Under the pieces are notes generated by a model. The model saw only the letters and a program-made list of their open reading frames with translations, was not told the DNA's origin and did no database searches. Both the position numbers and the translations under genes were made by a program. This document shows, in pieces, positions 42,074 through 56,302 of a stretch of DNA of 64,000 bases (its first letter is position 1; every line of letters starts with the position of its first letter). The stretch comes from Methanobacteriota archaeon. Lineage in GTDB: Archaea > Thermoplasmatota > Poseidoniia > Poseidoniales > Poseidoniaceae. The stretch lies in NCBI GenBank assembly GCA_002722135.1, contig PBKJ01000027.1, positions 75,833 to 139,832 of the forward strand, written 5' to 3'.

Positions 42074-43684
42074 ATGCGTTGGGACGTGCTGTACCTCATT
42101 CTTGGTTGGACCGTTGGGGCCCTCACGGTCCCCTTGGCCCTCGTTGGCATCGCCACGGCCTTCCTCGATGACGTGCAGATGGCCCTCATCGCGTTCCTCC
42201 CATCCACGCTGCTCGCGATGGGCTCCAGTTGGCTGATGCTGCGCTACGGCACCACCCCAGAAACCCCGGACCGCTTACGGGACAGGGAAGCCTTCGCCAC
42301 CGTGGCGCTGGCCTATCCGGTCGTGGTGGCGTTTGGCGCCATGCCATTCTGGTTGGGCGGCATGTTTCATGGTCCATTTACCGCTGATGTCACCCTTCTT
42401 GCGGCCATGGAAGGCCTCATCCATTCTGGATTTGAAGCGATGTCAGGATTCACCACAACAGGGACGACCATCATCGACGTGTCCACCTCACCGAATTGCT
42501 TCGCGAACACCGAAGATTGCATCGGCGCCCAGTCGCGTGGGCTTCTGTTGTGGCGATCAACCATGCAGTGGTTGGGAGGCATGGGTGTTATCATGCTCAG
42601 CATGGTGGTCTTGTCACGGGTTTTGGGCGGTGGAATGGCCCTCGCCCGAGCCGAATTGACTGGCCCTTCCCTCTCCCGCCTACGCCCCAAGCTCGCGCAA
42701 ACCGCCCAAGCGTTGTGGATCATGTACCTCGTGCTGACCCTTCTCGAAATTGCGCTGCTCATTGGCCTGACGCCCATGAACACCTTCGAGGCCGTCAATC
42801 ACGGCCTGACCACGATGCCAAGCGGCGGTTTCTCGACCACCGACGACAGCATCGGTCACTGGGACTCCGCTGCTCTGGAATCGATCATCCTGGTGTTCAT
42901 GTTCCTGGCAGGTGTCAACTTCACGCTGCTCTACTTCATCGTCCAGCGGCAACCAGGGAAGATGTGGGCCGATGAGGAATTCAAGACCTACATCGCTTAC
43001 TTGGTCGGAGCCACGGCGATCATCACGGCTGCGCTGTACGTCAAGGGCGGAGACGTGGGAGGCGAGCCCTTGCGGAAATCCCTGTTCCAGGTGGTCGCCA
43101 TCGCGACCTCGACAGGATACGGCACGGCCGATTACATGCTGTGGCCCGTCATTGCACAAATCGTCATTCTGATGTTGATGGTGGTGGGCGCTTCTGCAGG
43201 TTCGACCGCAGGTGGTCTCAAACTGCTGCGCATCAGCCTCGCCGTGAAGGTGGCACGACGCCAATTGAACAGACTCACGCACCCGAGGCGAATCCACACC
43301 GTTCGAATGAACGGCGAGCAGGTTGAACAGGAACAAGTCGAACTGATCGTTGGCATGTTGCTTGTTTGGATTCTCCTCTTTGCCGGTGCCTCCTTGCTTC
43401 TCGCCCTGATCATGGCACCGATGGGCGAGGACCTCGACGTCTTGACCGTCATTGGCGTGACGGCAAGCGCGTTGGGCAACACCGGTCCCGCGATGGGTCA
43501 ATTCGGGCCGGCGGTCACCTGGGCCGCCATGCCAAACGGCGGGCTGATTTTGACGGGGATTTTGATGTGGTTCGGCCGTCTTGAACTCTTGACGGCTGTC
43601 ATCCTCTTTTCGCCATCCACGTGGCGGGAGCCGGGCGCGAGAAAGAAGGACGCCGACGAAGAGGATCAGAACAGCGTGGTCTGA
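42074..43684 (+). CDS. trkH: K+ transporter TrkH/KtrB family
   Basis: 536 aa, repeated M-P-M pore modules with GxG selectivity-filter-like glycines; directly downstream of trkA. Confidence 0.8.
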   Translation: MRWDVLYLILGWTVGALTVPLALVGIATAFLDDVQMALIAFLPSTLLAMGSSWLMLRYGTTPETPDRLRDREAFATVALAYPVVVAFGAMPFWLGGMFHGPFTADVTLLAAMEGLIHSGFEAMSGFTTTGTTIIDVSTSPNCFANTEDCIGAQSRGLLLWRSTMQWLGGMGVIMLSMVVLSRVLGGGMALARAELTGPSLSRLRPKLAQTAQALWIMYLVLTLLEIALLIGLTPMNTFEAVNHGLTTMPSGGFSTTDDSIGHWDSAALESIILVFMFLAGVNFTLLYFIVQRQPGKMWADEEFKTYIAYLVGATAIITAALYVKGGDVGGEPLRKSLFQVVAIATSTGYGTADYMLWPVIAQIVILMLMVVGASAGSTAGGLKLLRISLAVKVARRQLNRLTHPRRIHTVRMNGEQVEQEQVELIVGMLLVWILLFAGASLLLALIMAPMGEDLDVLTVIGVTASALGNTGPAMGQFGPAVTWAAMPNGGLILTGILMWFGRLELLTAVILFSPSTWREPGARKKDADEEDQNSVV

Positions 43685-45195
43685 CCGGCCGCAGGCGAGG
43701 CCGCTGAATCGTCCTCTGCATCGTCGCCCACGGGCGCTTCAACCACCGCAGCAGGTGCAGCAGGGGCATCCTGTTCGGATTCACGCTGAAGGCGCTCGCT
43801 GAGCACCTCATCATAACGGAGCATGAGGTCCTTGGCCGAGCGACGGCTGGTGGCAAGGCCCGTCAGCGCAACGTGTTCGTTGGAGGTCAGCCCGAGCCCG
43901 ATGGACATGTCGAGGTGCTCATGGTCGCCCATGCCCCCCTCTGCGCTGAGACCGGCGGAGAGGATCGGGAGGAGTTCGGCCCTCATGCCCACCACGCTCG
44001 CCCCGCAAGCATCACCCAGGGCTTCCGCCACGGAGGCCGTCCTGCTCGCCGTGCGGCGGAGGTGCGCAGGGTAATTCGTGTAGACCTTCTTCTGAACAGG
44101 CTCCGAATTGGCCACCGAGGCTGCCAAACTGCTGAGGTGAAGGGACCAGTAGGACGAACGATGCGCGGTGCTGAGGTAGCGGGAGGCTGCGGCGCGATCC
44201 GCGAGGATCAGGCTTGTCGCAGCACGGTCACGCGATGTTGCTTGCGTGAAGACGGACCCGTTGTTCCAGTGGACCCAGTCCACCAACTCAGCGGGATCCT
44301 TGTCGAGGCTCGATGCATGACGGACGGCCTCCTCAGCCGTTCGTGACTGGTACACGGAGCCGAGTCCGGGGAAGACCCCCATGGTCAAATCACGACCACC
44401 GCTCTGAATACGTCCCATGACGACCTCAGCCGTGAGCACGCGGTCAAATCCTTCACACAGCACTTGGAGGTCACGCACCAAGGCCCGCAGGTCACCCGGA
44501 TTGTGTTTGACGAGCAGGTCCAGGGCATCACCGTCGAAGGTCACGCCTTCTTCACGCAGCACACGACGCGCAATACGACGGATGGCATCGTTGGACACCC
44601 GGTCGAAGTTGAGCGTCAACACGTGCCGAGAAAAACGGTCACGGGTGGAGCGCCAGTTGGATCCTGAGCCCCACAGACGCATCACGTCGTTGCAGGCCAG
44701 CACAACGGGCTGACTGGTTTTCTCCAACAAGCGCAGCAGTTCTGCTTTTCCACCCGAGTCCCCTTTCAACGCCTCCTTGTCCTCGTCGTCCATCAATTGT
44801 CCTCGGACGCGCGCGTCGCTGACGGCGCGTAACCCGCCCGAGAGGTGGTCCACTTCATCGAGAAGAATGAGGGTGCGCTGGGCGGGTTCGTTTGGGTCGT
44901 GAAAGAGCGAACGGTGGGTTGCACCGTGCGTGGCCGCCCTCCGGATTGCAGCTGCGTTGCGGTCGTCGGAGGCGTTGAGCTCAATGACGCTCCACCCCAT
45001 GTCCGCCGCAACCGCACGGACGACGGACGTTTTGCCCACCCCCGGCGGTCCAACCAGGAGCACGCCGGGCCGCTTTGGACGTCCGGTCCGCCATTCCTCG
45101 AGCCACTCGCGGAGCTTGCTTCGCTGCGCATCGTTGCCCTCGAGTTGGCGTTCGGACGACGGGCGATGCCGCTCCGTCCAATCGCTCACGGGCAT
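43666..45195 (-). CDS. rfcL: Replication factor C large subunit
   Basis: WTERHRP... N-terminal box, Walker A GPPGVGKT, DEVD Walker B, SRC-like and sensor motifs; start set to the internal ATG (MPVSDW); 19-nt convergent overlap with trkH. Confidence 0.75.
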   Translation of the reverse strand: MPVSDWTERHRPSSERQLEGNDAQRSKLREWLEEWRTGRPKRPGVLLVGPPGVGKTSVVRAVAADMGWSVIELNASDDRNAAAIRRAATHGATHRSLFHDPNEPAQRTLILLDEVDHLSGGLRAVSDARVRGQLMDDEDKEALKGDSGGKAELLRLLEKTSQPVVLACNDVMRLWGSGSNWRSTRDRFSRHVLTLNFDRVSNDAIRRIARRVLREEGVTFDGDALDLLVKHNPGDLRALVRDLQVLCEGFDRVLTAEVVMGRIQSGGRDLTMGVFPGLGSVYQSRTAEEAVRHASSLDKDPAELVDWVHWNNGSVFTQATSRDRAATSLILADRAAASRYLSTAHRSSYWSLHLSSLAASVANSEPVQKKVYTNYPAHLRRTASRTASVAEALGDACGASVVGMRAELLPILSAGLSAEGGMGDHEHLDMSIGLGLTSNEHVALTGLATSRRSAKDLMLRYDEVLSERLQRESEQDAPAAPAAVVEAPVGDDAEDDSAASPAAGQTTLF

Positions 45196-45235
45196 AACGC
45201 CCTCTCGGTTACGACGGTGTATCAACCCGCCGTCA

Positions 45236-46933
45236 TCAGGGAGCAGCGAGACGTCGAACCGCGTCATCAACGGACATACGCGTTTGTTCTCCCGTGTCCC
45301 GATCGCGCCAAGTGACCGTGCCGTCTTCGAGCGACGTATGGTCCACGGTCAAGCAACACGGCACCCCGATTTCGTCCGCTCTTGCGTACCTGCGGCCGAT
45401 GGAACCGCTTCCGTCGTAACTGGCCAGAACGCCACGCGTCCCGCACAGGCGGCGGTGAACCTCTGAAGCCATGGTATCCATGCCCTCCTTCTCAAACAAG
45501 GGCAAAACGGCAGCATCGACGGGTGCAACATCAGGGTGGAGGCGCATGCGGACGTACATCTCCTCGCCCGAGCCAGATTCTTCGTAGGCGTGGTCCAGCA
45601 GGTGCCAAATGATGCGGTCGATGCCAAAAGCCGGTTCGACAACGTGTGGAATGAACCACTCGCCAGCCACCGTTTCGGTGCGCTGGACTCGCTTGACGTG
45701 CTCCTCCTCAACGAGGACCTCCTCACCGCCGTCGAGCACGACGGTCAGCGGGAAACTCGCCTCCGGCCCAAGTGCTTCCACCTTGGATTTGACTTGACCC
45801 GCGAGGGCTCGGAAGGCTGGACCGGCCTTCGCGCCGTCGATGGTCCATCCGTTGATTTCCACCACCTTCGGCTCAGGGTAATTCCTCCAAGCCCGCAGGC
45901 GTTGACCCGTGGCCTTCTCATGGGCTTCGAGGTCATAGCAGCCTCGATGGGCGATACCAACGCACTCGATCCACCCGTAGGAACCGTGGAGTTCGACGTC
46001 CCAGCAGTCCAGCGCGTAATGCGCCATCTCATCGCGCGCGTGCTGCCTGAATCGAAGTTTCTCGGCATCAACGCCAAGCGCCAGCATCAGGTCATGGGTG
46101 CGCGCCATGAACCATGCCACGGTCGGGTGGAGGATGACGCCCTGGGCGAGTGCAGTTGGGATTGAGGCAGCGAAGGCGTCGCCTTCGGCCGGGACCAACT
46201 GGACCTCCGTCGAGGCCCACGGGCTCAGATCATGCGGCGCCTCCGTTTCAGGATCAATGAAGTATTCCAACTCGGCCATGTTGAATTCGCGGAGGCGAAT
46301 CATCCCTTGCCGTGGTGAAATTTCATTCCGATAACCACGACCAAGTTGCATGGCACCAAAGGGCAAGCGCTCACGGAAGTGCCTGTAGATGGCAGGGTAG
46401 GTCGTGAACATGCCTTGGGCCGTTTCTGGGCGCAAAAAGGCAGCACGGCCAGACGAACCAGCGCCGATGACCGTGTCGAACATCAGGTTCTCAGCCGCCA
46501 CCGGGGACCACGATGCTTCGCCGCAGGCCGGACACGGAGGTTGTACGTCGTCGAGCAGGGCTTGCAGGTCGCTCAACGACAGGGCATCGGGATTTGCGTG
46601 GTGGGCTTCAAGCAGCGTGTCCGCCCTGCTCGCTTCGTCGCACGCGGTGCACACGGTCATGAAATCACTGAACTCAGCCACGTGCCCACTCGCTTCCAGG
46701 ACGGCGAATGGCGTGACCGTAGGGCACGAAATTTCGACCACATCGCCTTGGCTGAGCCAGTGATCCCGCCAGACGGATTGCACCTTGGAGCGAAGCCGGC
46801 CACCGACCGGTCCGAAATCGTAGAGCCCTTTGGCACCCCCATGGATCTCAAAGGCAGGAAGGATGATGCCACGACGGCGCAGCATACCGGTCAGACGTTC
46901 CAACCGCTCAACGGAGGCCTGAGGCTCCACCAT
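45236..46933 (-). CDS. glyS: Glycyl-tRNA synthetase (archaeal/eukaryotic alpha2 type)
   Basis: 565 aa, class II motifs, insertion domains and C-terminal anticodon-binding domain. Confidence 0.85.
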   Translation of the reverse strand: MVEPQASVERLERLTGMLRRRGIILPAFEIHGGAKGLYDFGPVGGRLRSKVQSVWRDHWLSQGDVVEISCPTVTPFAVLEASGHVAEFSDFMTVCTACDEASRADTLLEAHHANPDALSLSDLQALLDDVQPPCPACGEASWSPVAAENLMFDTVIGAGSSGRAAFLRPETAQGMFTTYPAIYRHFRERLPFGAMQLGRGYRNEISPRQGMIRLREFNMAELEYFIDPETEAPHDLSPWASTEVQLVPAEGDAFAASIPTALAQGVILHPTVAWFMARTHDLMLALGVDAEKLRFRQHARDEMAHYALDCWDVELHGSYGWIECVGIAHRGCYDLEAHEKATGQRLRAWRNYPEPKVVEINGWTIDGAKAGPAFRALAGQVKSKVEALGPEASFPLTVVLDGGEEVLVEEEHVKRVQRTETVAGEWFIPHVVEPAFGIDRIIWHLLDHAYEESGSGEEMYVRMRLHPDVAPVDAAVLPLFEKEGMDTMASEVHRRLCGTRGVLASYDGSGSIGRRYARADEIGVPCCLTVDHTSLEDGTVTWRDRDTGEQTRMSVDDAVRRLAAP

Positions 46934-47022
46934 GATGCTTCGCTCCTTCTCAAGCCCTTCAACCCCTCGGCCAAATTTGGCGCGTGGGCAGGACTCAAAA
47001 GGTCGGAGCGGGCCCTCCGGGC

Positions 47023-47337
47023 ATGGGACAGGCCATGGTGGGCATCACCGATTCGGCCTGCACAGGTTGCGACCTGTGCATCCCCTTCTGCCCCTTCGAG
47101 GCCTTGTTGCCCTTGGTGGAAAATCCCGTTGAACGCAGCCATCCAAAACGTCCTGTGGTCGTGGTTGAAGCTGCATGCGTGGGCTGCTTGTCGTGCATCG
47201 GTTCCTGTCCAACCGGTGCACTGCACGAAGTTGCGCTTCCTCCCAGCAACGAAGCATCACCGTTGCTCGACCCACCGAAGGCCCCCGCCACGACCCCCGT
47301 CCTCCGTTGGGGACCCCGTGGCATCGGCTGGCCTTGA
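47023..47337 (+). CDS. 2x[4Fe-4S] ferredoxin
   Basis: CTGCDLCIPFCP and CVGCLSCIGSCP clusters; track ORF begins at 46984 (GTG), internal ATG at 47023. Confidence 0.65.
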   Translation: MGQAMVGITDSACTGCDLCIPFCPFEALLPLVENPVERSHPKRPVVVVEAACVGCLSCIGSCPTGALHEVALPPSNEASPLLDPPKAPATTPVLRWGPRGIGWP

Positions 47338-47355
47338 GCGTGCACACGGACGCCG

Positions 47356-47366
47356 TGTTTATATAC
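47356..47366 (+). promoter_or_regulatory. TATA box (TTTATATA) ~45 nt upstream of the lhr ATG
   Basis: Canonical archaeal TATA sequence in GC-rich context in the 72-nt spacer between ferredoxin and lhr. Confidence 0.45.
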
Positions 47367-47408
47367 TGAAGATGGCGGAGGCCACGCCACGGGCGTCGTG
47401 AGAAAAAC

Positions 47409-50400
47409 ATGCCAGAAATCACCTACCTCGAAACCTCCGATGATACGGAGGCCTTGGCGGCCCGCTTGAGCGAGCCTGTGCGACGGTGGTTCCTCGACAA
47501 GTTTCCCGACTTCACTGCCCCTCAGAAGATGGCCATCCCCGCCATCATGAACGGGGAACACCTGCTCCTGTGCAGCCCAACGGGGTCAGGAAAAACGCTG
47601 ACGGCTTTCCTCACGGTCATCGATGACTTGGTGCGTAAAGCGCTCGACGGCTCACTCAAGGACCAGGTGTACTGCATTTACATTTCACCGATCAAAGCCT
47701 TGGCGAATGACATCGAGCGGAACCTCCTCGGTCCGCTTGAAGAAATCAAGGCGCGCTATTTGCCGGACCGGGCCAAAGAAATCCGCGTGGGACTGCGGAC
47801 CGGCGACACCTCACAATCGGACCGCCAGAAGATGCTGAGGAAACCACCGCACATCCTCATCACCACCCCTGAAAGCATGGCCATCGCCGTCGGCTCCTCG
47901 AGGTTCCAACCCATCGTCTCGCGCGTCAAGTGGATGATCATCGACGAGCTGCACAGCCTGGTCCCAACCAAGCGTGGGGTGCACCTCAGCCTTACCTTGT
48001 CCTTCCTCGACACGCTGCTGAAGGACCCGGTTCAGCGCATCGGCATTTCCGCGACCATGGAACCCTTGGACACCGTGGCCGAATATTTGGTGGCCAGCGA
48101 TGACCGTGAATCCCGCGGAGAAGATCAGCGCATCATGGTCGCCAAAATTTCTGGCTCGAGGGAACTCGATCTGGACATCCTCATCACGCATCCCCGCTTT
48201 GCGGACCGCTCCGTGGCCCAGACCTTGGAGGCCAACGTGGAAGCCATCGCGGACCTGATCTCCGCCCACACCACCACACTGGTCTTCGCCAACACGAGGA
48301 AAATGACCGAGACGCTCGTCCAACGCCTCCGCCCCTTCTTGGGTGAACTCGTGGCTGGACATCACGGCTCGATGGACAAGAACATCCGGCTGGAGGTTGA
48401 ACGGAAACTGAAACTCGGCCATCTGCGGGCCGTGGTGACCTCGTCCTCTCTCGAGATGGGCATCGACATCGGTTCGGTTGATCTCGTCATCCAAGTCGGC
48501 TCCCCAGGCGACATCGCCACCGCCCTCCAGCGCATTGGCCGCGCGGGCCACCATGTTGGTGGCATCCCCCGTGCACGTTTCCTGCCGTCCTCCGTGGACG
48601 ACTTGCTCGAACTTGCCGCCCTCCAAGCGGCGATTCAAACGGGCGACATGGACCGCCTGTCTTTCCCACAAAACTGCCTTGACGTCGTCGCGCAGTTCCT
48701 CATTGGTTTGGTCATCAACGAGGAGCTTGACATCGACGAGGCCTACGAGATTGTCGTCAACGCATGGAGCTACAGGAATTTCGCGTACGACGATTTCATC
48801 GAAGTGCTGGACCTGTTGGAAGACGAGCGAAGAATCTGGGTCGACTGGGAAGAGAACACCTTCGGAAAGCGCGGATACTCCCGCATGATCTACTACACCA
48901 ACATCGGAACCATCGCACCGGACAACTCCTACCTTGTGTTCAACGCCGAGGGATCCATCCTCGGAAAGTTGTCCTCCTCCTTCGTGGCCAGCTTACGGAC
49001 CAGCGACGTCATTCTCCTCGGTGGCTCGACCTACCGCGTCAACACCATCCAAGGCACGCGTGTCAACGTCAGCAACGTCACGGGATACCGTCCGACCGTG
49101 CCCTCCTGGTCCGGTGAAGCGCGTTCCCGCTCGGCCGAATTGTCCTCGTCCTTGCTGGATTTGATCGGCCGGTGTGCGGTTGCGCTACGACGTGAAGTCG
49201 ACCCGCGCACGGTGCTCACTGAGGCCTATTCCATCGGTCGCGATTCGGCGGAAATCATCGCGCGCCACCTTGAAGAACACGTCCTCACGACTTTCCAAGT
49301 CCCCGACAAGGACCGTATCCTTGTTGAGCAAATCATCGGCGGCCCGCATCCGACCTACCTCATCACGACCTGCAGAGGACGCGGGTTCAACACGGCGCTT
49401 GGCTACTTCATGGCGGGACTGGCCGAGCAAGCCAGCATCCCGGTCATCGAGATGTCCTTCGATGAAAACGGACTGCTCCTCAAAACGGCCCAAGACGTGG
49501 ATCCAGGTGCGATGTACGAGGCCTTCTCGGCGGACAACCACATGGACGTCATCGAGCGGTACATCATCGGCACGCAAATTTTCGCCAAGCGATTCAGGGA
49601 AGTTGCCGGACGCAGCCTCATCATCCCCAAGCGGATTGGTGCGGAGGAAATCAGCCCGCAACAATTCCAGCAGCGCGCGGATGCTCTCCTCAATCGGCAC
49701 AGAACCATGGAGGGGTCCATCCTCATCCGTGAAGCAAAGAACGAGATCCTCTACGGCGACATCGACCTCGGAGGTCTGGAACAATTCCTGACCTCATGCC
49801 GCGAGGGACAGGCACGGATTGTTCACATCAGGACGACCTTGCCCAGCCGCATTGGCATGTCGCTGTACATGTCCGCGTTCGAGGACCTGATGTCCATGCG
49901 CACGAGGGCCTTCCTCGTCAAGGACATCGACCCGGCCATCCTCGAGCGCTTGCTCGGGAGGCGCTCTCTGGCCACGGAGATGACCAACGAGCAAATCAGT
50001 GACTATTACGCCAACAAAGTCCCAGTCCCTGTGGACGCGGACACCCTGTTGGCGCTTATGGAACACGGTGGTGGCCTCGACCGATCGTTCGGAAATCCAC
50101 TCTATAGAGAGAAACTCAGCGGCATTGACCACGAAGTAATCCGCGGTTGGGTCGAGGAATTGTGCACCGCAGGGCGAATCACGAAAATCGAAGCAACCGG
50201 CATGGAGGAACTCGACGGCAAGTGGTTCAGCACCTACATGGGCGAAATCCACGGCACCCTCGGGTGCCTTGCCGCCAACGGCGGACGGGACGTGGAAGAC
50301 CTCCTCACGCTGCACACCGCAGGGGTGACCTACCGCATGGCCTCCGCCTTCAGCGGAACAAAAGTCACGTCGTGGACGGACATGGAATTGGGCGACCCCC

Positions 50401-52697
50401 AGGAAGCCCTGCGCGTGAAGCTCATCGAGATGCTCGGCTCTGAAGGCCCACAGACCGCTGACCACCTGGAGGCGCGGTTGCCCTTCCCACGGTCGATGGT
50501 CGAGCGGACCATCCACCAACTTGAGACTCGAAACGTCATCAGCATCGGCTTCTTCACGCAAACCGAAGAGGCCGAGTTCATCCTCAAAGTCGACGAGCAC
50601 CGCATCACGGGCGGCGAAGAAGAGGTCATCGAGTACCGCTCCATCCAGAACATGATCCTCGACAAGTCGTTCACCATGTACGATGACGTCGACCAAGCCT
50701 TTGACCAGCACCTGCTCTTCCAGAAGCAGCAGGAACTGCTCTACCGGATCAACGATTTCAGGTTCAGCGATTGGAAGGACCTGCAGTTGGACCGTGACAT
50801 CGTCAACGGGCGGCTCCTGCACAACCGCCAAGGGTACACGACGCGAAGGAACCTTCCCATGCTGCTCGGACTCAAACCTGAGCCTTACATCGGTGCGATG
50901 GAGGCCGACCTGCTCGACCGCATCCTGCCCGGCGAGGAACCTCAGCGCTCCGAAATCGTGGCCATGTATCCGAAAGGCGACGAACACAAGCAACTCCAGC
51001 GTGACGTCAAGAATGGCCTCGCCAACCTCGAGCGCCAACTTTTGGTCGCGAAACAATTCGAAGAAGTTCCAGGACGTCGTCGACGTTTGTCCTTCTACCA
51101 CCGCGTCCACGAGGTCTACGACGGGTTGTCCTTCGAGGACGCTTTGTGCGAGGTCATCCGTCGCATCGGGCCCATCAAGGCCAACACGCTTCGGTTCTAC
51201 GTCAGCCGTGCCTACGAAGAATTGGTCATCGCCCTCAAGGCGCTGGAACAGGATGGACGCATCAGCCGCGTTACTACGCTGGTGCCAGAACCCGAGGATT
51301 TCTATTGCGCTCCTGAGGAAGTCGGGACCTTCCGTCGCGCTCGGCGAGAGGACCGGTCGATGCGCATCCTGACGCAATCCGACCCCTACGTCTCTCGTTT
51401 CATCTGGGAGGTCCGCGCCATGTTGGACCGCGGCTGGTACCTGCCCGTGTTCAAGGGCATCGACCCGGTTGGGAAGGTCCTGATGTTCAAGGTGAACGAC
51501 TACCTCGAAGTCAAGGACATTCAGATTCCCGCAGCTTACCTCGAGGAATTCTGCGAAGCCTTCGACGTGCTGCTCAACAACCACGCCGAACAACTGGTGG
51601 ACGTCGCGGTCCTCAGCGGCATCAACGGTCAACCGATCAACGAAGTGGAGCAGGTCTGGCGCGACGCGCTGGGGAGCATCGGGTTCAAGCTCGCCGGGGA
51701 GCGGATGATCCGAGGGGGCATCGTCGAAACCCAGCCACGGAACCTCGCCGATCGTGCCTTGTTCCACAAGCACCACCTGCACCAATCGGCACGGCTGGAG
51801 AACGAGTTCCTCGCCCTCAAGAGGATTCGAGAAGTCCGTGACGACTTCGCCCTCCGTGGACGTGCTGAGGTCTACCGCGTGGACCTGAAGAGCATGGCGA
51901 GTGCGAACCGACTGCACCAGGGCGTCAACCTCCGAGGCCACCAGTCCTGGGCCTCCTACGAGCACTTCCAGACCCTGTTGGCCATCCGGGGCATTGAACC
52001 CGATGAGGACCTTGCTGACGTGCTGGAGTTCTTCTCGACACATTCGGATCATGAGTTGTTCAAAGAACGCTATGCGCTGAGCCAATCGGAGTTCAGAAAA
52101 TTGGTTCAACCCCTCATCAGGTCCGGTCACATCGTCCAAGATTTCCGAGGAGGATTCAGGACGGTCACCGTGGATGCCTCGCTTGAACGGTCTGTTTTGC
52201 GCAAGGAGTACCTGCGCTCCCTCGTGGCCGATTTCCCCGTCATGACGATCAAGCAACTCTTGTCCTTGGCAGGCAGCCACTTCAAGCCGGAGGAGGTCAA
52301 AGCCATCCTGACGGAGTTTGAGGAAGATGAGACCCTCATCAAGGGCTTCCTGATCGATGACCTGCACGAGGTCTGTTGGGGGCGAAAGGACCTCCTCGCC
52401 GAGGCCAAGGAACTCCAACCGATGCGCGACTTCGTGCTTCCGCCCTCGGACCCCATCGCGCCGTACTTTGCTGGCACGCTCAAGGAAAAGTTCGGCTTTG
52501 GCAGCGCCTATCTGGTGTTCAAGAACGGCGAACCGGCTGCCGCCTTCAAGGCCAACACCAGAAACCGCGTCATCGAAGTCACGGACTATGAAGGGAAGGA
52601 AGACGCGTGGCGCATCGTCAAGGAATTCGCGTGGGAGCACCAGATGCCGCTCACGTCCGAGGTCAGGATTGGCGGTCGACGGTTGAGCAGTTCCTGA
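47409..52697 (+). CDS. lhr: Lhr-family large ATP-dependent DEAD/DEAH-box helicase with an ~850-aa C-terminal extension
   Basis: FTAPQKMAIPAIMNGEHLLLCSPTGSGKT (Q motif / Walker A), DELH box, ..ARAGH.., followed by WH/domain-4-like regions and a long C-terminal region without recognisable catalytic motifs; 1762 aa. Confidence 0.75.
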   Translation: MPEITYLETSDDTEALAARLSEPVRRWFLDKFPDFTAPQKMAIPAIMNGEHLLLCSPTGSGKTLTAFLTVIDDLVRKALDGSLKDQVYCIYISPIKALANDIERNLLGPLEEIKARYLPDRAKEIRVGLRTGDTSQSDRQKMLRKPPHILITTPESMAIAVGSSRFQPIVSRVKWMIIDELHSLVPTKRGVHLSLTLSFLDTLLKDPVQRIGISATMEPLDTVAEYLVASDDRESRGEDQRIMVAKISGSRELDLDILITHPRFADRSVAQTLEANVEAIADLISAHTTTLVFANTRKMTETLVQRLRPFLGELVAGHHGSMDKNIRLEVERKLKLGHLRAVVTSSSLEMGIDIGSVDLVIQVGSPGDIATALQRIGRAGHHVGGIPRARFLPSSVDDLLELAALQAAIQTGDMDRLSFPQNCLDVVAQFLIGLVINEELDIDEAYEIVVNAWSYRNFAYDDFIEVLDLLEDERRIWVDWEENTFGKRGYSRMIYYTNIGTIAPDNSYLVFNAEGSILGKLSSSFVASLRTSDVILLGGSTYRVNTIQGTRVNVSNVTGYRPTVPSWSGEARSRSAELSSSLLDLIGRCAVALRREVDPRTVLTEAYSIGRDSAEIIARHLEEHVLTTFQVPDKDRILVEQIIGGPHPTYLITTCRGRGFNTALGYFMAGLAEQASIPVIEMSFDENGLLLKTAQDVDPGAMYEAFSADNHMDVIERYIIGTQIFAKRFREVAGRSLIIPKRIGAEEISPQQFQQRADALLNRHRTMEGSILIREAKNEILYGDIDLGGLEQFLTSCREGQARIVHIRTTLPSRIGMSLYMSAFEDLMSMRTRAFLVKDIDPAILERLLGRRSLATEMTNEQISDYYANKVPVPVDADTLLALMEHGGGLDRSFGNPLYREKLSGIDHEVIRGWVEELCTAGRITKIEATGMEELDGKWFSTYMGEIHGTLGCLAANGGRDVEDLLTLHTAGVTYRMASAFSGTKVTSWTDMELGDPQEALRVKLIEMLGSEGPQTADHLEARLPFPRSMVERTIHQLETRNVISIGFFTQTEEAEFILKVDEHRITGGEEEVIEYRSIQNMILDKSFTMYDDVDQAFDQHLLFQKQQELLYRINDFRFSDWKDLQLDRDIVNGRLLHNRQGYTTRRNLPMLLGLKPEPYIGAMEADLLDRILPGEEPQRSEIVAMYPKGDEHKQLQRDVKNGLANLERQLLVAKQFEEVPGRRRRLSFYHRVHEVYDGLSFEDALCEVIRRIGPIKANTLRFYVSRAYEELVIALKALEQDGRISRVTTLVPEPEDFYCAPEEVGTFRRARREDRSMRILTQSDPYVSRFIWEVRAMLDRGWYLPVFKGIDPVGKVLMFKVNDYLEVKDIQIPAAYLEEFCEAFDVLLNNHAEQLVDVAVLSGINGQPINEVEQVWRDALGSIGFKLAGERMIRGGIVETQPRNLADRALFHKHHLHQSARLENEFLALKRIREVRDDFALRGRAEVYRVDLKSMASANRLHQGVNLRGHQSWASYEHFQTLLAIRGIEPDEDLADVLEFFSTHSDHELFKERYALSQSEFRKLVQPLIRSGHIVQDFRGGFRTVTVDASLERSVLRKEYLRSLVADFPVMTIKQLLSLAGSHFKPEEVKAILTEFEEDETLIKGFLIDDLHEVCWGRKDLLAEAKELQPMRDFVLPPSDPIAPYFAGTLKEKFGFGSAYLVFKNGEPAAAFKANTRNRVIEVTDYEGKEDAWRIVKEFAWEHQMPLTSEVRIGGRRLSSS

Positions 52698-52750
52698 AGG
52701 CCAAACCATCGCACCAACAGGTTTTGAAGACGCGGGGCCGTCTTCCCCCC

Positions 52751-55700
52751 ATGCACGACGGACGCCCCCGTGCGCTCGCCCTCGTGGCCCTCTTGGTGCT
52801 CTCCACCACCCTCGCCACCTTGAGCCCGACCGCCGGCGCGGAATCATCCTTGGACATCGAAGTGCTGGACACCAAGGTCAATCCAGCGAACAACCACACC
52901 TATCACCTGCTTTCTGCCTCGTCATGGACGGAAGCAGCGCAGGCCGCCCGTGGCCTCGAAGGCTTCCTCGTCACGGTGGACGACGAAGCAGAAAACACGT
53001 GGCTGCACGAAACGTGGGGCAACGACGGAAACGTCACGCGCCATTTGTGGACCGGCCTCAACGATGCCGCGGAAGAAGGCGTCTTTCGCTGGCATGACGG
53101 CACGCCCTACATCCACCGTCAGTGGGGCGAAGATCAACCGAGCATGACCGATGAAGAGGACTACGTGCACATCACGGGTCCAAACATGGGCTCCATCCAG
53201 CCCGGCGATTGGAACGACTTGGAGAACGACCCGCAGTACTTCCCGGTCTACGGCGTGGTGGAGCTTGGCCCCGGCGCGGATTTCGCCTTGCGCTTCGACG
53301 GTGAGGACGACCACGTCATCACGGCCGATGACACGTCCCTGCGCGCACCCTCCTCGGAGGGTGAGTTGACCATCGAAGCGAGGGTCTATCCCACAGATCT
53401 CGACGGCATCCACACCGTGGTGATGTACGGCGACTATGGATACGGTCTCTACCTCAATGACGGACGCCTGGGGTATTCCTCAGAATACAGCCTGTCCAAA
53501 AACGCCCTGAGCGAGGCCAACACCACGCTGAGCGCGGACACGTGGTCCACCGTGGCCGTCGCCGTGAACGCATCCACGGGAGGCACCTTCTTCCTGAACG
53601 GCGAGGCCATCGGCTCGTTTGACGCCACACAAGCAGAGATTCCAGCGGGTGACTTCGGCTCCAACGACTGTTACGATGCAGGCCTCGCCTGCGAGAACCT
53701 GGTGATAGGACGCCACGGCGCAGGCGCAGACCGCTACCACTTCGAAGGCATGATCGACCACGTCAGCATCAGTTCTGACGACCACCGAATCACCACAGAC
53801 GACGGTGGCATCGGCCTGGACAGCTCCGACGATCCGCTCTCCACCTGGACGTTTGGTGAAGGCGAGGGAGACCTCACCATGGACAACGCCGAGAGGAACG
53901 GCACGATTCATGGCGCGGCTTGGGTGATGCCAGATGGCTCGGTGGTGGCTCAGGCTTTGGAACTCGAAAACGGCGATGAACTCGCCATCGAGGACGTGAG
54001 CGCCGGCGACACGCTCCTCTTCTTTGCCGAACTCCCTGAATACACTCGGGACTTCAGCGTCCAAGCCTTCGCATGGTCAGCCGGCAAAGGGAAGGAAGAC
54101 GGCGATGCGGAGTTTAGCCTCTACCACGACATCGACCGCGTTCCTTCAGCGTGGTCGCACATGGATGAAGTCGAAAATTGGGGCTGGGGCGGTGTGTTCG
54201 CCTCCTACAGTTGGCCTGATGCCGGCGTACACTGGTTTGCACTGCAGGCAGACTCTGACCTTGACGAATTCAGCCTGTGGGTGGAGTGGGACGTCGCGGA
54301 AGCCCCGCCAACCTTGGAGGACATGATCGAACTCAAGCACGGCATTCCTGTCGCCAACCAAGACCTGCAAAGCCAGCGCGGGAATGAATTCGGCGACACA
54401 ATCCAGTATTACGTCAACGTCACCGAGCCGCTTGCCGATCTCGCGGTGGAAACGTACGGCGGTGACGGTAACGTCGAACTCGCCATCTCCTACGGGGGCC
54501 CACCGGACCCCTTCGGGCAATGGAGCGAGTGGGACGAGTGGGACATCATTGGAGCACCCGGTTTCCTTGGTGAGGACGATGCGGATGTCGAAGCCTACGA
54601 AGATTGGTCGATGGGGCCCGGGAACGACGAGGAGGTTCACCTCTACAACGTTGAACCCGGCACCTACTACGTGACGGCGTACACCTGGGGACGAGCCTTC
54701 GATTTCAGCATCGTCGCCGACCTGACCCCAATGCCGACCAACGGCGAGGCCTCCGACGCCATTGCCCTGACCGCAGGCGTTCCGTACGGCCCCTTCTCCG
54801 GCTACGACGGTCTCAGCCAATACTTCTCCATCGACGTGCCGGAAGGCACAGAACGGCTGGAAGTTCGCCTGGACGACGGCGTCGGAGAAGCCGACCTCCA
54901 TCTTGCCTACGCGTCCACGCCGACGGAGACGGTCTACGACCACCGGAGCACGTCGCCTGGCTCGAACGACATGGTCGCGTTCAACGACCCCACACCGGGA
55001 ACGTGGATGATTCTCGTCCACACCGAGCGCGTGTTCAGCGGCACCACCATCCTCGCGGAGTTTGCCGACCGGTACGTCTGGGATTGGGACGGTGAGCCCA
55101 TCCAGTTGTTCAATGGAGAGGCCATTGTGGGCATCGAGGCAGAAGAAGGCACGGTGTTGGAATTCTTTGGCATCCTCGAGGAACCCGCCTCACCGCTTGA
55201 GGTCACGACCTGGGGCGAAGATGGGGTCATCGAACTCGAAGGCGAAGCGGAGCCCTACGATTGGGACCTGATCTTCGAGGAAGGGCCTCGTGGACGGCAA
55301 TGGGGCGAAGCCACGTGGATCGAAGGCGACGGCGCCAATTGGTTCTGGTACGTTGACATCGCCGCAAACGGGCGTTTTGACGTGACCGTTGAGGTGGTTG
55401 AAGACCTCAGTGCACTCGGCATCATGGCGACGTGGGTTGAGGCCGATTTGCCGCCCGTGGACGACGACGATGACGTTGACAGCGACGAACCCTTTGATCC
55501 TCAAGGGTGCGAAGACCGAACGATCGAGTGGTTCAGCGAACTTGATGCCAACCGGGACGGGTTTGTCAGCCTCGATGAGCACCGGCCGCACCCCGATACG
55601 GGCACACCCGGAGAGGACCTCGACCGCAACCAAGACGAACGCCTCCAAATGGCCGAACTGGAAGCCGATTTGTGCTCCTGTGCACAAGAATTCCTCTTCA

Positions 55701-56302
55701 TTTGGGAACAAGCCGACGAAGCCGATGCCATCGCGCTCGAGGATTTGGAAACGGTGTCTTACCTGAACGAGATTGATTTGGAGGCCATGGACCGAGACGG
55801 CGACGGCGACATCGACGACCGTGAGGCTGAGCGTCACACCCTGGCCTGTTCAACGACCTACGACCCGATCGACCTCGACGGTGACGGTGTCCCCAACGAC
55901 GACGACGCGTTCCCGGAAGACCCCGACGAGAGCGAAGACTCGGACGGCGACGGCGTGGGCGACAATGCAGACCTTGTCGCGGGTGTCAACGACAGCATGG
56001 TGACCTACGGAGCCGCGGCGGCCGTCCTCGGTCTGGTCATTGTCTTGCTGCTGACCATGTTGCGCCGAGGACCCGGTGGTGCACAGCCGGTTGACCCGTG
56101 GGCGGAACTCGGGGACGAGAAGCGCATGCCAGACCTCTTCGAACCCGCAACCATGGCTCAGGAACCGTCCATGGCGTTTGATTCAGCTCCATCTTCTGCG
56201 AGCAACAACCCCGTACAGCCTGCACCTGAAGTCCCAGGCATGACCGATCTGCCGCCGCCGTTGAACGATGCGTTGCCAAGCGAACCACTCGAGTGGCGAT
56301 GA
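52751..56302 (+). CDS. Large secreted surface protein: C-type-lectin-like domain + LamG/ConA-like domain + 3 PPC (pre-peptidase C-terminal) domains + EF-hand-like Ca sites + TSP3-like repeats + TM anchor + Pro-rich cytoplasmic tail
   Basis: Signal peptide MHDGRPRALALVALLVLSTTLATLSPTAGA; CTLD-like WTGLNDAAEEGVFRWHDG...WNDLEND; LamG-like block (LRFDG...LNGEAIGSF); PPC-like blocks (YYVNVTE..., YFSIDVPEG...ADLHLAY..., ...); DANRDGFVSLDE / DRDGDGDIDD loops; DLDGDGVPNDDDAFPEDPDESEDSDGDGVGDNAD; TM AAAAVLGLVIVLLLTML + RRG + 75-aa tail. The track ORF begins at 52607 inside lhr; start moved to the signal-peptide Met. Confidence 0.6.
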   Translation: MHDGRPRALALVALLVLSTTLATLSPTAGAESSLDIEVLDTKVNPANNHTYHLLSASSWTEAAQAARGLEGFLVTVDDEAENTWLHETWGNDGNVTRHLWTGLNDAAEEGVFRWHDGTPYIHRQWGEDQPSMTDEEDYVHITGPNMGSIQPGDWNDLENDPQYFPVYGVVELGPGADFALRFDGEDDHVITADDTSLRAPSSEGELTIEARVYPTDLDGIHTVVMYGDYGYGLYLNDGRLGYSSEYSLSKNALSEANTTLSADTWSTVAVAVNASTGGTFFLNGEAIGSFDATQAEIPAGDFGSNDCYDAGLACENLVIGRHGAGADRYHFEGMIDHVSISSDDHRITTDDGGIGLDSSDDPLSTWTFGEGEGDLTMDNAERNGTIHGAAWVMPDGSVVAQALELENGDELAIEDVSAGDTLLFFAELPEYTRDFSVQAFAWSAGKGKEDGDAEFSLYHDIDRVPSAWSHMDEVENWGWGGVFASYSWPDAGVHWFALQADSDLDEFSLWVEWDVAEAPPTLEDMIELKHGIPVANQDLQSQRGNEFGDTIQYYVNVTEPLADLAVETYGGDGNVELAISYGGPPDPFGQWSEWDEWDIIGAPGFLGEDDADVEAYEDWSMGPGNDEEVHLYNVEPGTYYVTAYTWGRAFDFSIVADLTPMPTNGEASDAIALTAGVPYGPFSGYDGLSQYFSIDVPEGTERLEVRLDDGVGEADLHLAYASTPTETVYDHRSTSPGSNDMVAFNDPTPGTWMILVHTERVFSGTTILAEFADRYVWDWDGEPIQLFNGEAIVGIEAEEGTVLEFFGILEEPASPLEVTTWGEDGVIELEGEAEPYDWDLIFEEGPRGRQWGEATWIEGDGANWFWYVDIAANGRFDVTVEVVEDLSALGIMATWVEADLPPVDDDDDVDSDEPFDPQGCEDRTIEWFSELDANRDGFVSLDEHRPHPDTGTPGEDLDRNQDERLQMAELEADLCSCAQEFLFIWEQADEADAIALEDLETVSYLNEIDLEAMDRDGDGDIDDREAERHTLACSTTYDPIDLDGDGVPNDDDAFPEDPDESEDSDGDGVGDNADLVAGVNDSMVTYGAAAAVLGLVIVLLLTMLRRGPGGAQPVDPWAELGDEKRMPDLFEPATMAQEPSMAFDSAPSSASNNPVQPAPEVPGMTDLPPPLNDALPSEPLEWR

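Follow-up and report, generated by a model that had tools for sequence, protein, structure and literature searches.

The window analysed here (the whole stretch of DNA, 64 kb) contains an open reading frame that begins with ATG, has no internal stops and joins in one frame the core of an Lhr helicase (residues 1–850) to a 912-aa C-terminal domain (CTD). The question raised by this locus is whether a frame of 1762 codons is truly a single gene and, if so, what its second half is and does. Lhr is a widespread repair helicase about which little is understood, and what its AlkZ-like tail does is still debated: it serves as a tetramerisation scaffold in mycobacteria and as a uracil glycosylase in E. 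coli. The analysis presented below makes it probable that the protein is a Thermoplasmatota Lhr (aLhr2 / Lhr-HTH_42 type), in which the helicase core is followed by a winged-helix subdomain (N) and two tandem AlkZ-like modules (M1 and M2) with the roles proposed further on. The coordinates of all features are given in Table 1.

Table 1. Features of the lhr locus, in positions of the window
Feature	Coordinates	Strand	Basis or remark
lhr gene	47409..52697	+	1762 codons plus stop; frame unbroken and colinear at 57 Poseidoniales loci (species level)
Lhr core (aa 1-850): RecA1, RecA2, WH1, Domain 4	47409..49958	+	Pfam + NCBIfam
DEAD/RecA1 domain (aa 36-218)	47514..48062	+	PF00270, 2.7e-30
Helicase_C/RecA2 domain (aa 277-381)	48237..48551	+	PF00271, 4.2e-19
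Lhr winged-helix domain WH1, WH_Lhr (aa 408-559)	48630..49085	+	PF19306, 3.2e-25
DEAD_assoc / Lhr Domain 4 (aa 631-815)	49299..49853	+	PF08494, 1.7e-31
CTD subdomain N (aa 851-1065), array of winged helices corresponding to WH2-WH3 of bacterial Lhr	49959..50603	+	hhalign
CTD module M1 (aa 1066-1450), first AlkZ-like module	50604..51758	+	PF06224 in relatives, hhalign to M2
CTD module M2 (aa 1451-1762), second AlkZ-like module, complete with three WH and a beta-barrel	51759..52694	+	predicted fold
E-V-R-D-D-F-A-L-R-G-R-A-E block (aa 1475-1487), in M2	51831..51869	+	putatively aligned with the AlkZ/YcaQ catalytic QΦ(Q/D) position
TTTATATA, putative TATA box of lhr promoter	47358..47365	+	43 nt before ATG
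CACGGG, possible initiator / TSS region	47388..47393	+	~24 nt downstream of TATA box; columns conserved (64-locus alignment)
GTGAG, Shine-Dalgarno-like motif, then A-rich spacer	47398..47402	+	putative role
4Fe-4S ferredoxin ORF	46984..47337	+	upstream of lhr
Divergent class II aaRS, HGTP anticodon domain, glyS-like	45236..46933	-	upstream of lhr

An open reading frame of this length could arise as an artefact, either because a frameshift or misassembly has joined two genes or because the CTD is an independent gene with an internal start. Databases do hold CTD-only or shortened gene calls (P0002, 940 aa; P0003, 863 aa; P0065, 1365 aa), which might be taken to favour this explanation; however, each is attributable to a single frameshift, at differing positions and on long-read contigs, and in each case the full colinear protein was recovered across two frames by tblastn. 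The frame of ~1760 codons is unbroken (residues 1–1760) in 57 independent Poseidoniales species genomes, about 100 database proteins of 1755–1786 aa are full length, and more distant relatives in other Thermoplasmata (1700–1930 aa, ~27–30% identity) are colinear from end to end. The artefact is thus of negligible probability and we regard it as already refuted: the fusion of core and CTD is real and forms a single gene, whose start codon is supported by the alignment of orthologues from residue 1. An earlier note on this DNA, which had described a very long Lhr helicase with a large CTD in one uninterrupted frame and had proposed a read-through check for a frameshift fusion, is borne out in this respect, and its alternative of an independent C-terminal gene fails as an artefact of this kind given the intact frames and colinear relatives. 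Judging from the sequence, an extra internal transcription start may nevertheless lie within lhr. Two further candidates were set aside, namely a 1017-aa antisense ORF, which is a shadow ORF, and matches of 200–280 aa to the M2 region, which look like truncated gene calls from an internal conserved Met and are not counted as stand-alone homologues.

The first half of the protein is readily identified. All four Pfam domains are present in order and make up a full Lhr core, the NCBIfam model PRK13767 spans residues 9–848, and the top PDB sequence match of the core is the M. smegmatis protein MsmLhr (5v9x, 1e-109). The SF2 motifs are intact and align with those of E. coli Lhr (I, PTGSGKT; II, DELH of the DExH type; III, SAT; VI, QRIGRAGH). 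By motifs and domain order the protein is therefore an Lhr helicase, with DNA-dependent ATPase and 3'-to-5' translocase/helicase activity presumed.

The CTD is far more diverged. A Pfam scan of the window protein's own CTD (E ≤ 10) returned faint wHTH matches only and did not find the AlkZ-like domain PF06224, while PDB sequence searches with the single sequence, an MGII (Marine Group II) profile or a diverse profile gave no AlkZ or Lhr match above noise (5uuj at E 1.5); its homology emerges only when relatives, profiles and the predicted fold are taken into account. Among family members, 17/24 close and 12/14 diverse CTDs give a PF06224 match, which falls on the M1 region (profile positions 82–256, best E 8e-18). 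M1 and M2 match each other by hhalign at 99.7% (E 5e-26, 302 columns), and an HMM of M2 also matches the M1 region (iE 3e-8); the repeat is undetected when the alignment is confined to MGII (hhalign 9%), so that diverse Thermoplasmata sequences are needed to see it. N, which contains a faint TrmB/MarR wHTH match at CTD positions 152–195, is in turn homologous to the beginning of both modules, over ~240 residues in M1 and ~215 in M2 (hhalign 98.4% each).

Comparison with bacterial Lhr-CTDs needed a profile of 26 bacterial CTD sequences, with which the CTD matches profile to profile. N corresponds to the N-terminal part of the bacterial CTD (residues 1–225; hhalign 97.4%, E 1.2e-11), that is, to its WH2-WH3 subdomain, and M1 gives a weak profile match to the bacterial AlkZ-like part (20%). 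Against single sequences the family profile was weak by hhalign (E. coli Lhr-CTD 23%, YcaQ < 4%). Structure prediction adds to this picture. An initial AF2 model covering the entire CTD was of middling quality (pLDDT 62, pTM 0.34), with the M1 part only partly confident, and Foldseek with this model gave significant matches to AlkX, AlkZ and 7LHL with poor TM scores. The predicted structure of M2 is the C-shaped fold of AlkZ/YcaQ type, consisting of three tandem winged helices with a beta-barrel at the C-terminus. On these profile comparisons the entire CTD shares homology with that of bacterial Lhr, with N, M1 and M2 as mutually homologous repeats, and in the model M2 has the AlkZ fold, in agreement with the suggestion in the earlier note that the C-terminal half is related to the bacterial Lhr-CTD and AlkZ-like winged-helix fold.

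The CTD differs from its bacterial counterpart in the number of AlkZ-like modules, which the note had not foreseen. In full-length bacterial Lhr (bLhr-HTH; E. coli, 1538 aa; M. smegmatis, 1507 aa; CTD structure PDB 7LHL) the CTD measures ~615–665 aa and consists of five WH modules and one beta-barrel, i.e. a single AlkZ-like module, whereas the CTD described here reaches 912 aa because it holds two complete AlkZ-like modules, the additional one accounting for the extra length. The AlkZ-like region lies C-terminal to Domain 4 as in bLhr-HTH and long aLhr2, as seen via relatives, profiles and the M2 fold. AlkZ and YcaQ (AlkX; PDB 5UUJ, 9ZD6) are stand-alone monomeric interstrand-crosslink glycosylases of ~370–410 aa, while here the modules stand in tandem and are fused to a helicase. 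Core-only archaeal Lhr proteins (M. thermautotrophicus Lhr, T. barophilus aLhr2, S. solfataricus Hel112) share the core family and are presumed to be 3'-to-5' translocases on forks and RNA:DNA hybrids (PMC8301817, among other literature), but end after Domain 4 (~850–950 aa) and lack the AlkZ-like tail.

The long form is nevertheless no peculiarity of this genome. It is found throughout Marine Group II, where it is the norm; relatives are encoded in 423 GTDB species genomes; public records call the protein 'ATP-dependent Lhr-like helicase'; the two-module layout is common to the Thermoplasmata relatives at 27–30% identity, and a relative of 2344 aa carries three AlkZ-like modules. Hajj et al. 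2021 (PMC8301817) described a long aLhr2 C-terminus with HTH_42 in Methanomassiliicoccales and extended aLhr2 C-termini in Thermoplasmatales, both of the same phylum and likewise combining an archaeal core with a long C-terminal region, in which PF06224 can be detected in some proteins but escapes detection in others, as here. The earlier note took the long CTD for a feature of bacteria, a premise now outdated since long archaeal aLhr2 was already on record in that study, and the note's own alternative, a well-known archaeal extension, holds in part, as the reported proteins, the 423 species genomes and the Thermoplasmata relatives indicate. That study states HTH_42 presence or 'no detected Pfam domain' only, and says nothing about the number of modules, the repeat structure or Marine Group II (PMC8301817). 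Long archaeal Lhr as such is therefore already known, and what appears new is the CTD architecture of N and two tandem AlkZ-like modules, of which we found no description; the finding is of a known kind with a different architecture. It corrects the common view of archaeal Lhr as core-only and reveals no new kind of system.

A recent gain from bacteria, by movement of a bLhr-HTH gene into Marine Group II, might be considered given that the best-known examples of the long CTD architecture are bacterial and that archaea rarely encode AlkZ-like (HTH_42) proteins (one survey, PMC9040887, counts 12 sequences). We consider this very unlikely, because the core is only 31% identical to that of E. coli Lhr and scores 743 bits with PRK13767 compared to 382 bits with the E. 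coli-type PRK09751; the CTD is strongly diverged from bacterial CTDs, its similarity to them lying below HMMER detection with no PDB or bacterial match; the two-module architecture is shared with the distant Thermoplasmata relatives; and Hajj et al. assign long aLhr2 to aLhr2, which has a common ancestor with bLhr-HTH (PMC8301817). Nothing in these sequence comparisons indicates a recent bacterial origin.

The proposed function follows the domain order. The core, presumed to be an SF2 translocase powered by ATP and moving 3'-to-5', shares one polypeptide with the 912-aa winged-helix tail and would travel on single-stranded DNA at stalled forks or RNA:DNA hybrids, by analogy with the biochemistry of other Lhr proteins, while the AlkZ-like modules would bind duplex or damaged DNA beside the motor. 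M1 and M2 are each proposed to comprise three winged helices and a beta-barrel, and the presence of two such modules in tandem in one chain may take over some of the packing between subunits that tetramerisation gives to bacterial CTDs. M2 would be the likelier lesion-binding, possibly base-excising, module, because its most conserved block (R-D-D-F..R-G-R) lies at the site of the AlkZ/YcaQ catalytic motif. Residues E1475, R1477, D1478, F1480, L1482, R1483, G1484 and R1485 are present in 99/99 MGII sequences, D1479 in 97/99 and E1487 in 96/99, with positions 1476, 1481 and 1486 variable, and among the distant relatives 21/23 retain R1477 and 22/23 retain R1485. We infer that this block is positionally equivalent to Q45-I-D47 of YcaQ from a profile-to-sequence alignment that is colinear but of low probability.

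The catalytic motif itself, QΦQ in AlkZ and QΦD in YcaQ ((Q/H)Φ(Q/D)), is not conserved across the family in either M1 or M2, and we therefore do not file the protein as an AlkZ/YcaQ-type enzyme. The aligned positions are R1477-D1478-D1479 in M2 and Q1105-K-Q1107 in M1, the latter conserved within MGII only (Q1105 in 93/99 sequences, G/S in distant relatives). A counterpart of Asp-1536 of E. coli Lhr (D1536, in the uracil-DNA glycosylase active site) was not identified in a low-confidence alignment, in which the E. coli terminus ...GLDWG falls on an M1 segment G-F-x6-[ILV]-x-[KR]-G that has no conserved Asp. A C-terminal D-W tail is present in Thermoplasmata relatives and absent from the MGII proteins.

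It is conceivable on these grounds that the CTD is a non-catalytic scaffold, engaged in oligomerisation or partner binding only, with neither module recognising or excising lesions. The CTD of MsmLhr, which also lacks the motif, nucleates a tetramer that covers the corresponding DNA-binding surface, and gel shifts with the purified CTD showed no binding to DNA (PMC8053096), so the CTD may here too serve structure or oligomerisation alone. However, the E. coli Lhr-CTD has uracil-DNA glycosylase activity though it lacks QxQ (PMC10953399), and the near-invariant charged block of M2 at the catalytic-motif position suggests that a functional site, and not just a scaffold, has been conserved; we therefore think that the scaffold reading probably does not hold.

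Beyond the proposed assignment of M2 as the likelier lesion-binding module, we can speculate that the extra module is no passive duplicate, that M2 is a new catalytic or lesion-recognition variant of the HTH_42 glycosylase fold, and that M1 and M2 form an intramolecular pseudo-dimer replacing the inter-subunit CTD packing of bacteria, although we consider this combination unlikely. If it were true, Thermoplasmatota would have a monomeric helicase with two lesion-processing sites, and module number (two, or three in the longest relative) would tune substrate range. The archaea of Marine Group II, all of which carry this long form, rank among the most abundant in the plankton and are exposed to strong light and oxidative stress. 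A naturally occurring variant that has two and sometimes three modules, and a putative active-site block conserved in a different way, gives a point of comparison for learning what the AlkZ-like module does and how it works together with the motor.

Upstream of the gene, TTTATATA is the sole match in the window on both strands (0.01 expected in dinucleotide shuffles), and an A/T-rich box is positionally conserved at -51..-43 in ~60 orthologous loci. The candidate initiator CACGGG is assigned that role because its distance from the box fits the usual archaeal spacing between TATA box and TSS, and GTG(A) is kept ~11 nt before the ATG in most orthologues, as would suit a Shine-Dalgarno-like element. 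An inverted repeat in this 5' region gave no RNAalifold consensus and is more simply read as the initiator-like CAC(G)GG together with the SD-like GTGA. The TATA-box promoter that the earlier note had assigned to lhr is plausible in view of the conserved A/T-rich box, and lhr is probably transcribed from it, just downstream of the ferredoxin gene. The ferredoxin and divergent glyS-like aaRS genes are both present upstream as that note had placed them, and since the former ends 21 nt upstream of the TATA box, lhr may also be co-transcribed with it.

A single long ORF in the window encodes an Lhr helicase core followed by a large C-terminal extension, as the earlier note had proposed. A Pfam scan of the window protein recovered the complete set of four Lhr-core domains, correctly ordered, and 912 further residues continue in the same frame beyond it. 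The top NCBIfam model is PRK13767 (743 bits, aa 9–848), and the E. coli-type full-length model PRK09751 scores 382 bits with a match confined to the core. The core shares 31% identity with that of E. coli Lhr, retains helicase motifs I, II (DELH), III and VI intact, and has M. smegmatis Lhr (5v9x, 1e-109) as its closest solved structure.

Features of the Lhr locus, in window coordinates or, for domains, residues of the window protein
Feature	Position	Strand	Remarks
glyS-like gene	45236–46933	-	divergent, upstream of Lhr
4Fe-4S ferredoxin ORF	46984–47337	+	between glyS and Lhr
TTTATATA	47358–47365		putative TATA box, 43 nt before ATG
Lhr ORF	47409–52697	+	ATG start, 1762 codons, single reading frame
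DEAD	aa 36–218		Pfam match
Helicase_C	aa 277–381		Pfam match
WH_Lhr	aa 408–559		Pfam match
DEAD_assoc (Domain 4)	aa 631–815		Pfam match
Downstream ORF	52607–56302	+	GTG start as listed; 91-nt overlap with Lhr end

The possibility that a frameshift had fused two genes was checked, and the fusion of core and C-terminal domain (CTD, aa 851–1762) proved genuine and conserved. Scanning one genome per GTDB species, we found 423 genomes encoding a relative of the window Lhr and took the best 80 loci further. An intact frame of ~1750–1830 codons, covering essentially residues 1–1760 at 71–99% identity, is present in 57 of these 80; nearly all of the remainder run off a contig end, and locus L010 alone carries a frameshift. 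The protein collection holds ~100 full-length proteins of 1755–1786 aa, many named 'ATP-dependent Lhr-like helicase'. Two apparently split genes on megabase contigs were each explained by a single frameshift, at differing positions, in a pilon-polished long-read assembly, and in both the full protein is colinear across the two frames. The CTD search returned relatives, many fragmentary, solely from Marine Group II (MGII; Poseidoniales), and essentially all of the best 80 of the 423 bear archaeal MAG labels (Poseidoniales/Poseidoniaceae, Poseidonia, Thermoplasmatota or the older 'Euryarchaeota/Methanobacteriota' names), the original MG-II genome CM001443.1 among them. One exception is L074, a 5.9-kb contig binned in a 'Rhodobiaceae bacterium' MAG; the relative protein P0290 is likewise named 'Deltaproteobacteria bacterium'. 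Both share 63–67% identity with the window protein, and their bacterial labels most probably reflect faulty binning or annotation.

A 1017-aa ORF on the minus strand (window 49794–52847), opposite the whole CTD-coding region, was rejected as a shadow ORF. It is not conserved among the Lhr relatives compared, the longest antisense open stretch being 531 and 380 codons where identity is 98–99% and 105–250 in most other relatives; TTA, CTA and TCA are nearly unused in the Lhr plus frame (7 codons in 1762). Across Poseidoniaceae species with ~72–75% protein identity, the orthologous Lhr genes (L003–L082) have a G+C content of 36–59%, the window organism lying at the high-GC extreme.

Pfam and PDB sequence searches with the window protein's own CTD both returned no match. 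PF06224 (AlkZ-like) is matched by 17 of 24 close CTDs and by 12 of 14 diverse ones (best E 8e-18), and PF23234 (WH4_Lhr) by 10 of the same 14. Profile–profile comparison of the family CTD (30 sequences) with the bacterial Lhr-CTD (26 sequences) gave 97.1% probability (E 5e-11) and aligned archaeal CTD residues 6–583 with residues 37–660 of the 663 in E. coli. The archaeal CTD is thus homologous to the bacterial one, a counterpart that the earlier note had suggested looking for. The archaeal CTD exceeds the bacterial alignment by ~300 residues.

This CTD comprises a region N and two AlkZ-like modules, M1 and M2, for which the family alignment was cut in three (CTD residues 1–215, 216–600 and 601–912). 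M1 and M2 match each other at 99.7% (E 5e-26, 302 columns aligned) and have equivalent barrel motifs ('RILSxxDP..FGxGWYxPV' in M1, 'FVLxPxDxL..KFGxGxxYxVF' in M2), and plain HMMER found reciprocal M1/M2 cross-matches in 30 of 30 long relatives. N matches the N-terminal ~240 residues of M1 and the N-terminal ~215 of M2, each at 98.4%. Corresponding pairs of sub-segments reach 92–98%, compared to 5% for a non-corresponding pair and at most 6% for control segments of the helicase core. Against the bacterial subdomains, N matches WH2-WH3 at 97.4%, and the AlkZ-like part is matched by M2 at 82.6% versus 20% for M1. Thus the window Lhr consists of core, N and two AlkZ-like modules, whereas bacterial Lhr has core, WH2-WH3 and one. 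Module number is variable within the family, since the distant relative P0220 (2344 aa) has three full AlkZ-like modules after N (~1157–1554, 1547–1927 and 1957–2339). We found no description of the two-module architecture in the searchable literature, where just three papers name Lhr together with HTH_42 and module number is a topic in none of them.

AlkZ and YcaQ carry the motif QΦQ or QΦD. In a colinear but low-probability alignment its position falls on R1477-D1478-D1479 in M2 and Q1105-K-Q1107 in M1; the canonical motif is not conserved at these positions, since M2 has R-D-D and conservation of the M1 glutamines is confined to MGII. In 99 MGII sequences the surrounding M2 block, E-[LVI]-R-D-D-F-x-L-R-G-R-x-E, hardly varies outside the x positions (D1479 in 97, the final E in 96), and distant relatives keep R1477 and R1485 almost throughout. 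M2 nevertheless has a strongly constrained charged site where the catalytic motif would lie, and this site may have a role in binding or cleavage. No counterpart of E. coli Asp-1536 was identifiable in the archaeal CTD alignments. Distant Thermoplasmata relatives (P0089, P0097, P0104, P0127) share an acidic C-terminal tail, D-[DE]-W-[DE]-[ILV]-[IV]-x-[WY]-[YV]-[DE]-K, resembling the E. coli Lhr C-terminus ...GLDWG, where catalytic Asp-1536 is located; neither the window protein nor the other MGII proteins have such a tail.

An exhaustive search of 1.84 billion representative proteins with the CTD profile gave only 275 matches, among them some thirty full-length proteins of 1660–1940 aa and one of 2344 aa. 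Of these full-length relatives, roughly half align with the window protein end to end in one piece (~27–30% identity), the remainder in two pieces (core 33–38%, CTD 21–24%). Their CTDs measure 845–1070 aa, and those that are named come from Thermoplasmata MAGs. The long architecture is therefore of old standing in Thermoplasmatota, in line with Hajj et al. 2021 (PMC8301817), who reported a long C-terminus with HTH_42 in Methanomassiliicoccales aLhr2 and, in Thermoplasmatales aLhr2, extended C-termini lacking any Pfam domain, and who take aLhr2 and bacterial Lhr-HTH to descend from a common ancestor. Given that earlier report, the earlier note's view of the long CTD as a bacterial trait is outdated, and none of the present results points to a recent bacterial origin of the window Lhr. 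The earlier interpretation is right in part, the CTD being the counterpart of that of bacterial Lhr. Prior literature, and the fact that the long form is the norm in this lineage, weaken its claim of unusualness. Archaeal long aLhr2 was already known; what we did not find described is an AlkZ-like module duplicated in tandem, with the motif conserved in M2.

The TATA-like element noted near the Lhr start was recovered as TTTATATA, its sole occurrence in the 64-kb window (0.01 expected). Comparison of 64 orthologous upstream regions identified three positionally kept elements: an A/T-rich box spanning -51 to -43, CAC(G)GG ~24 nt downstream of it, and GTGA followed by an A-rich run directly before the ATG. 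These fit a TATA box, initiator region and Shine-Dalgarno-like site, respectively; RNAalifold detected no conserved structure in the 5' region of the orthologues. The ferredoxin ORF and divergent glyS-like gene also lie upstream as noted earlier, and because the ferredoxin ORF ends just 21 nt upstream of the TATA box, transcription may read through into Lhr.

Close relatives have the ferredoxin ORF; the gene calls for L001 and L002 do not include it, and the glyS–Lhr gap there is only 118–179 bp; at many other orthologous loci an upstream ORF ends in a similar '...GW(P/A)*' sequence. The window (43666–56302), L001 and L002 share the MGII gene order TrkH, AAA+ ATPase (-; weak Rad17/RuvB-N matches), glyS-like (-), Lhr (+) and a large protein (+; ~1150–1230 aa, with Lectin_C, Laminin_G_3 and PPC domains). 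Since the listed GTG ORF overlaps Lhr, the true start of the downstream gene probably lies beyond 52607. In the stretch from the TATA-like box to the ATG (window 47349–47411 and L001–L082), CAC...GTG arms have the look of a small inverted repeat with varying half-sites (ACGCC/GGCGT in the window; CTCAC/GTGAG, CACT/AGTG and CACAC/GTGTG in other orthologues). These arms may merely be the initiator-like CACGGG and the Shine-Dalgarno-like GTGA, or they may form an operator for a repressor, overlapping the site where transcription starts.
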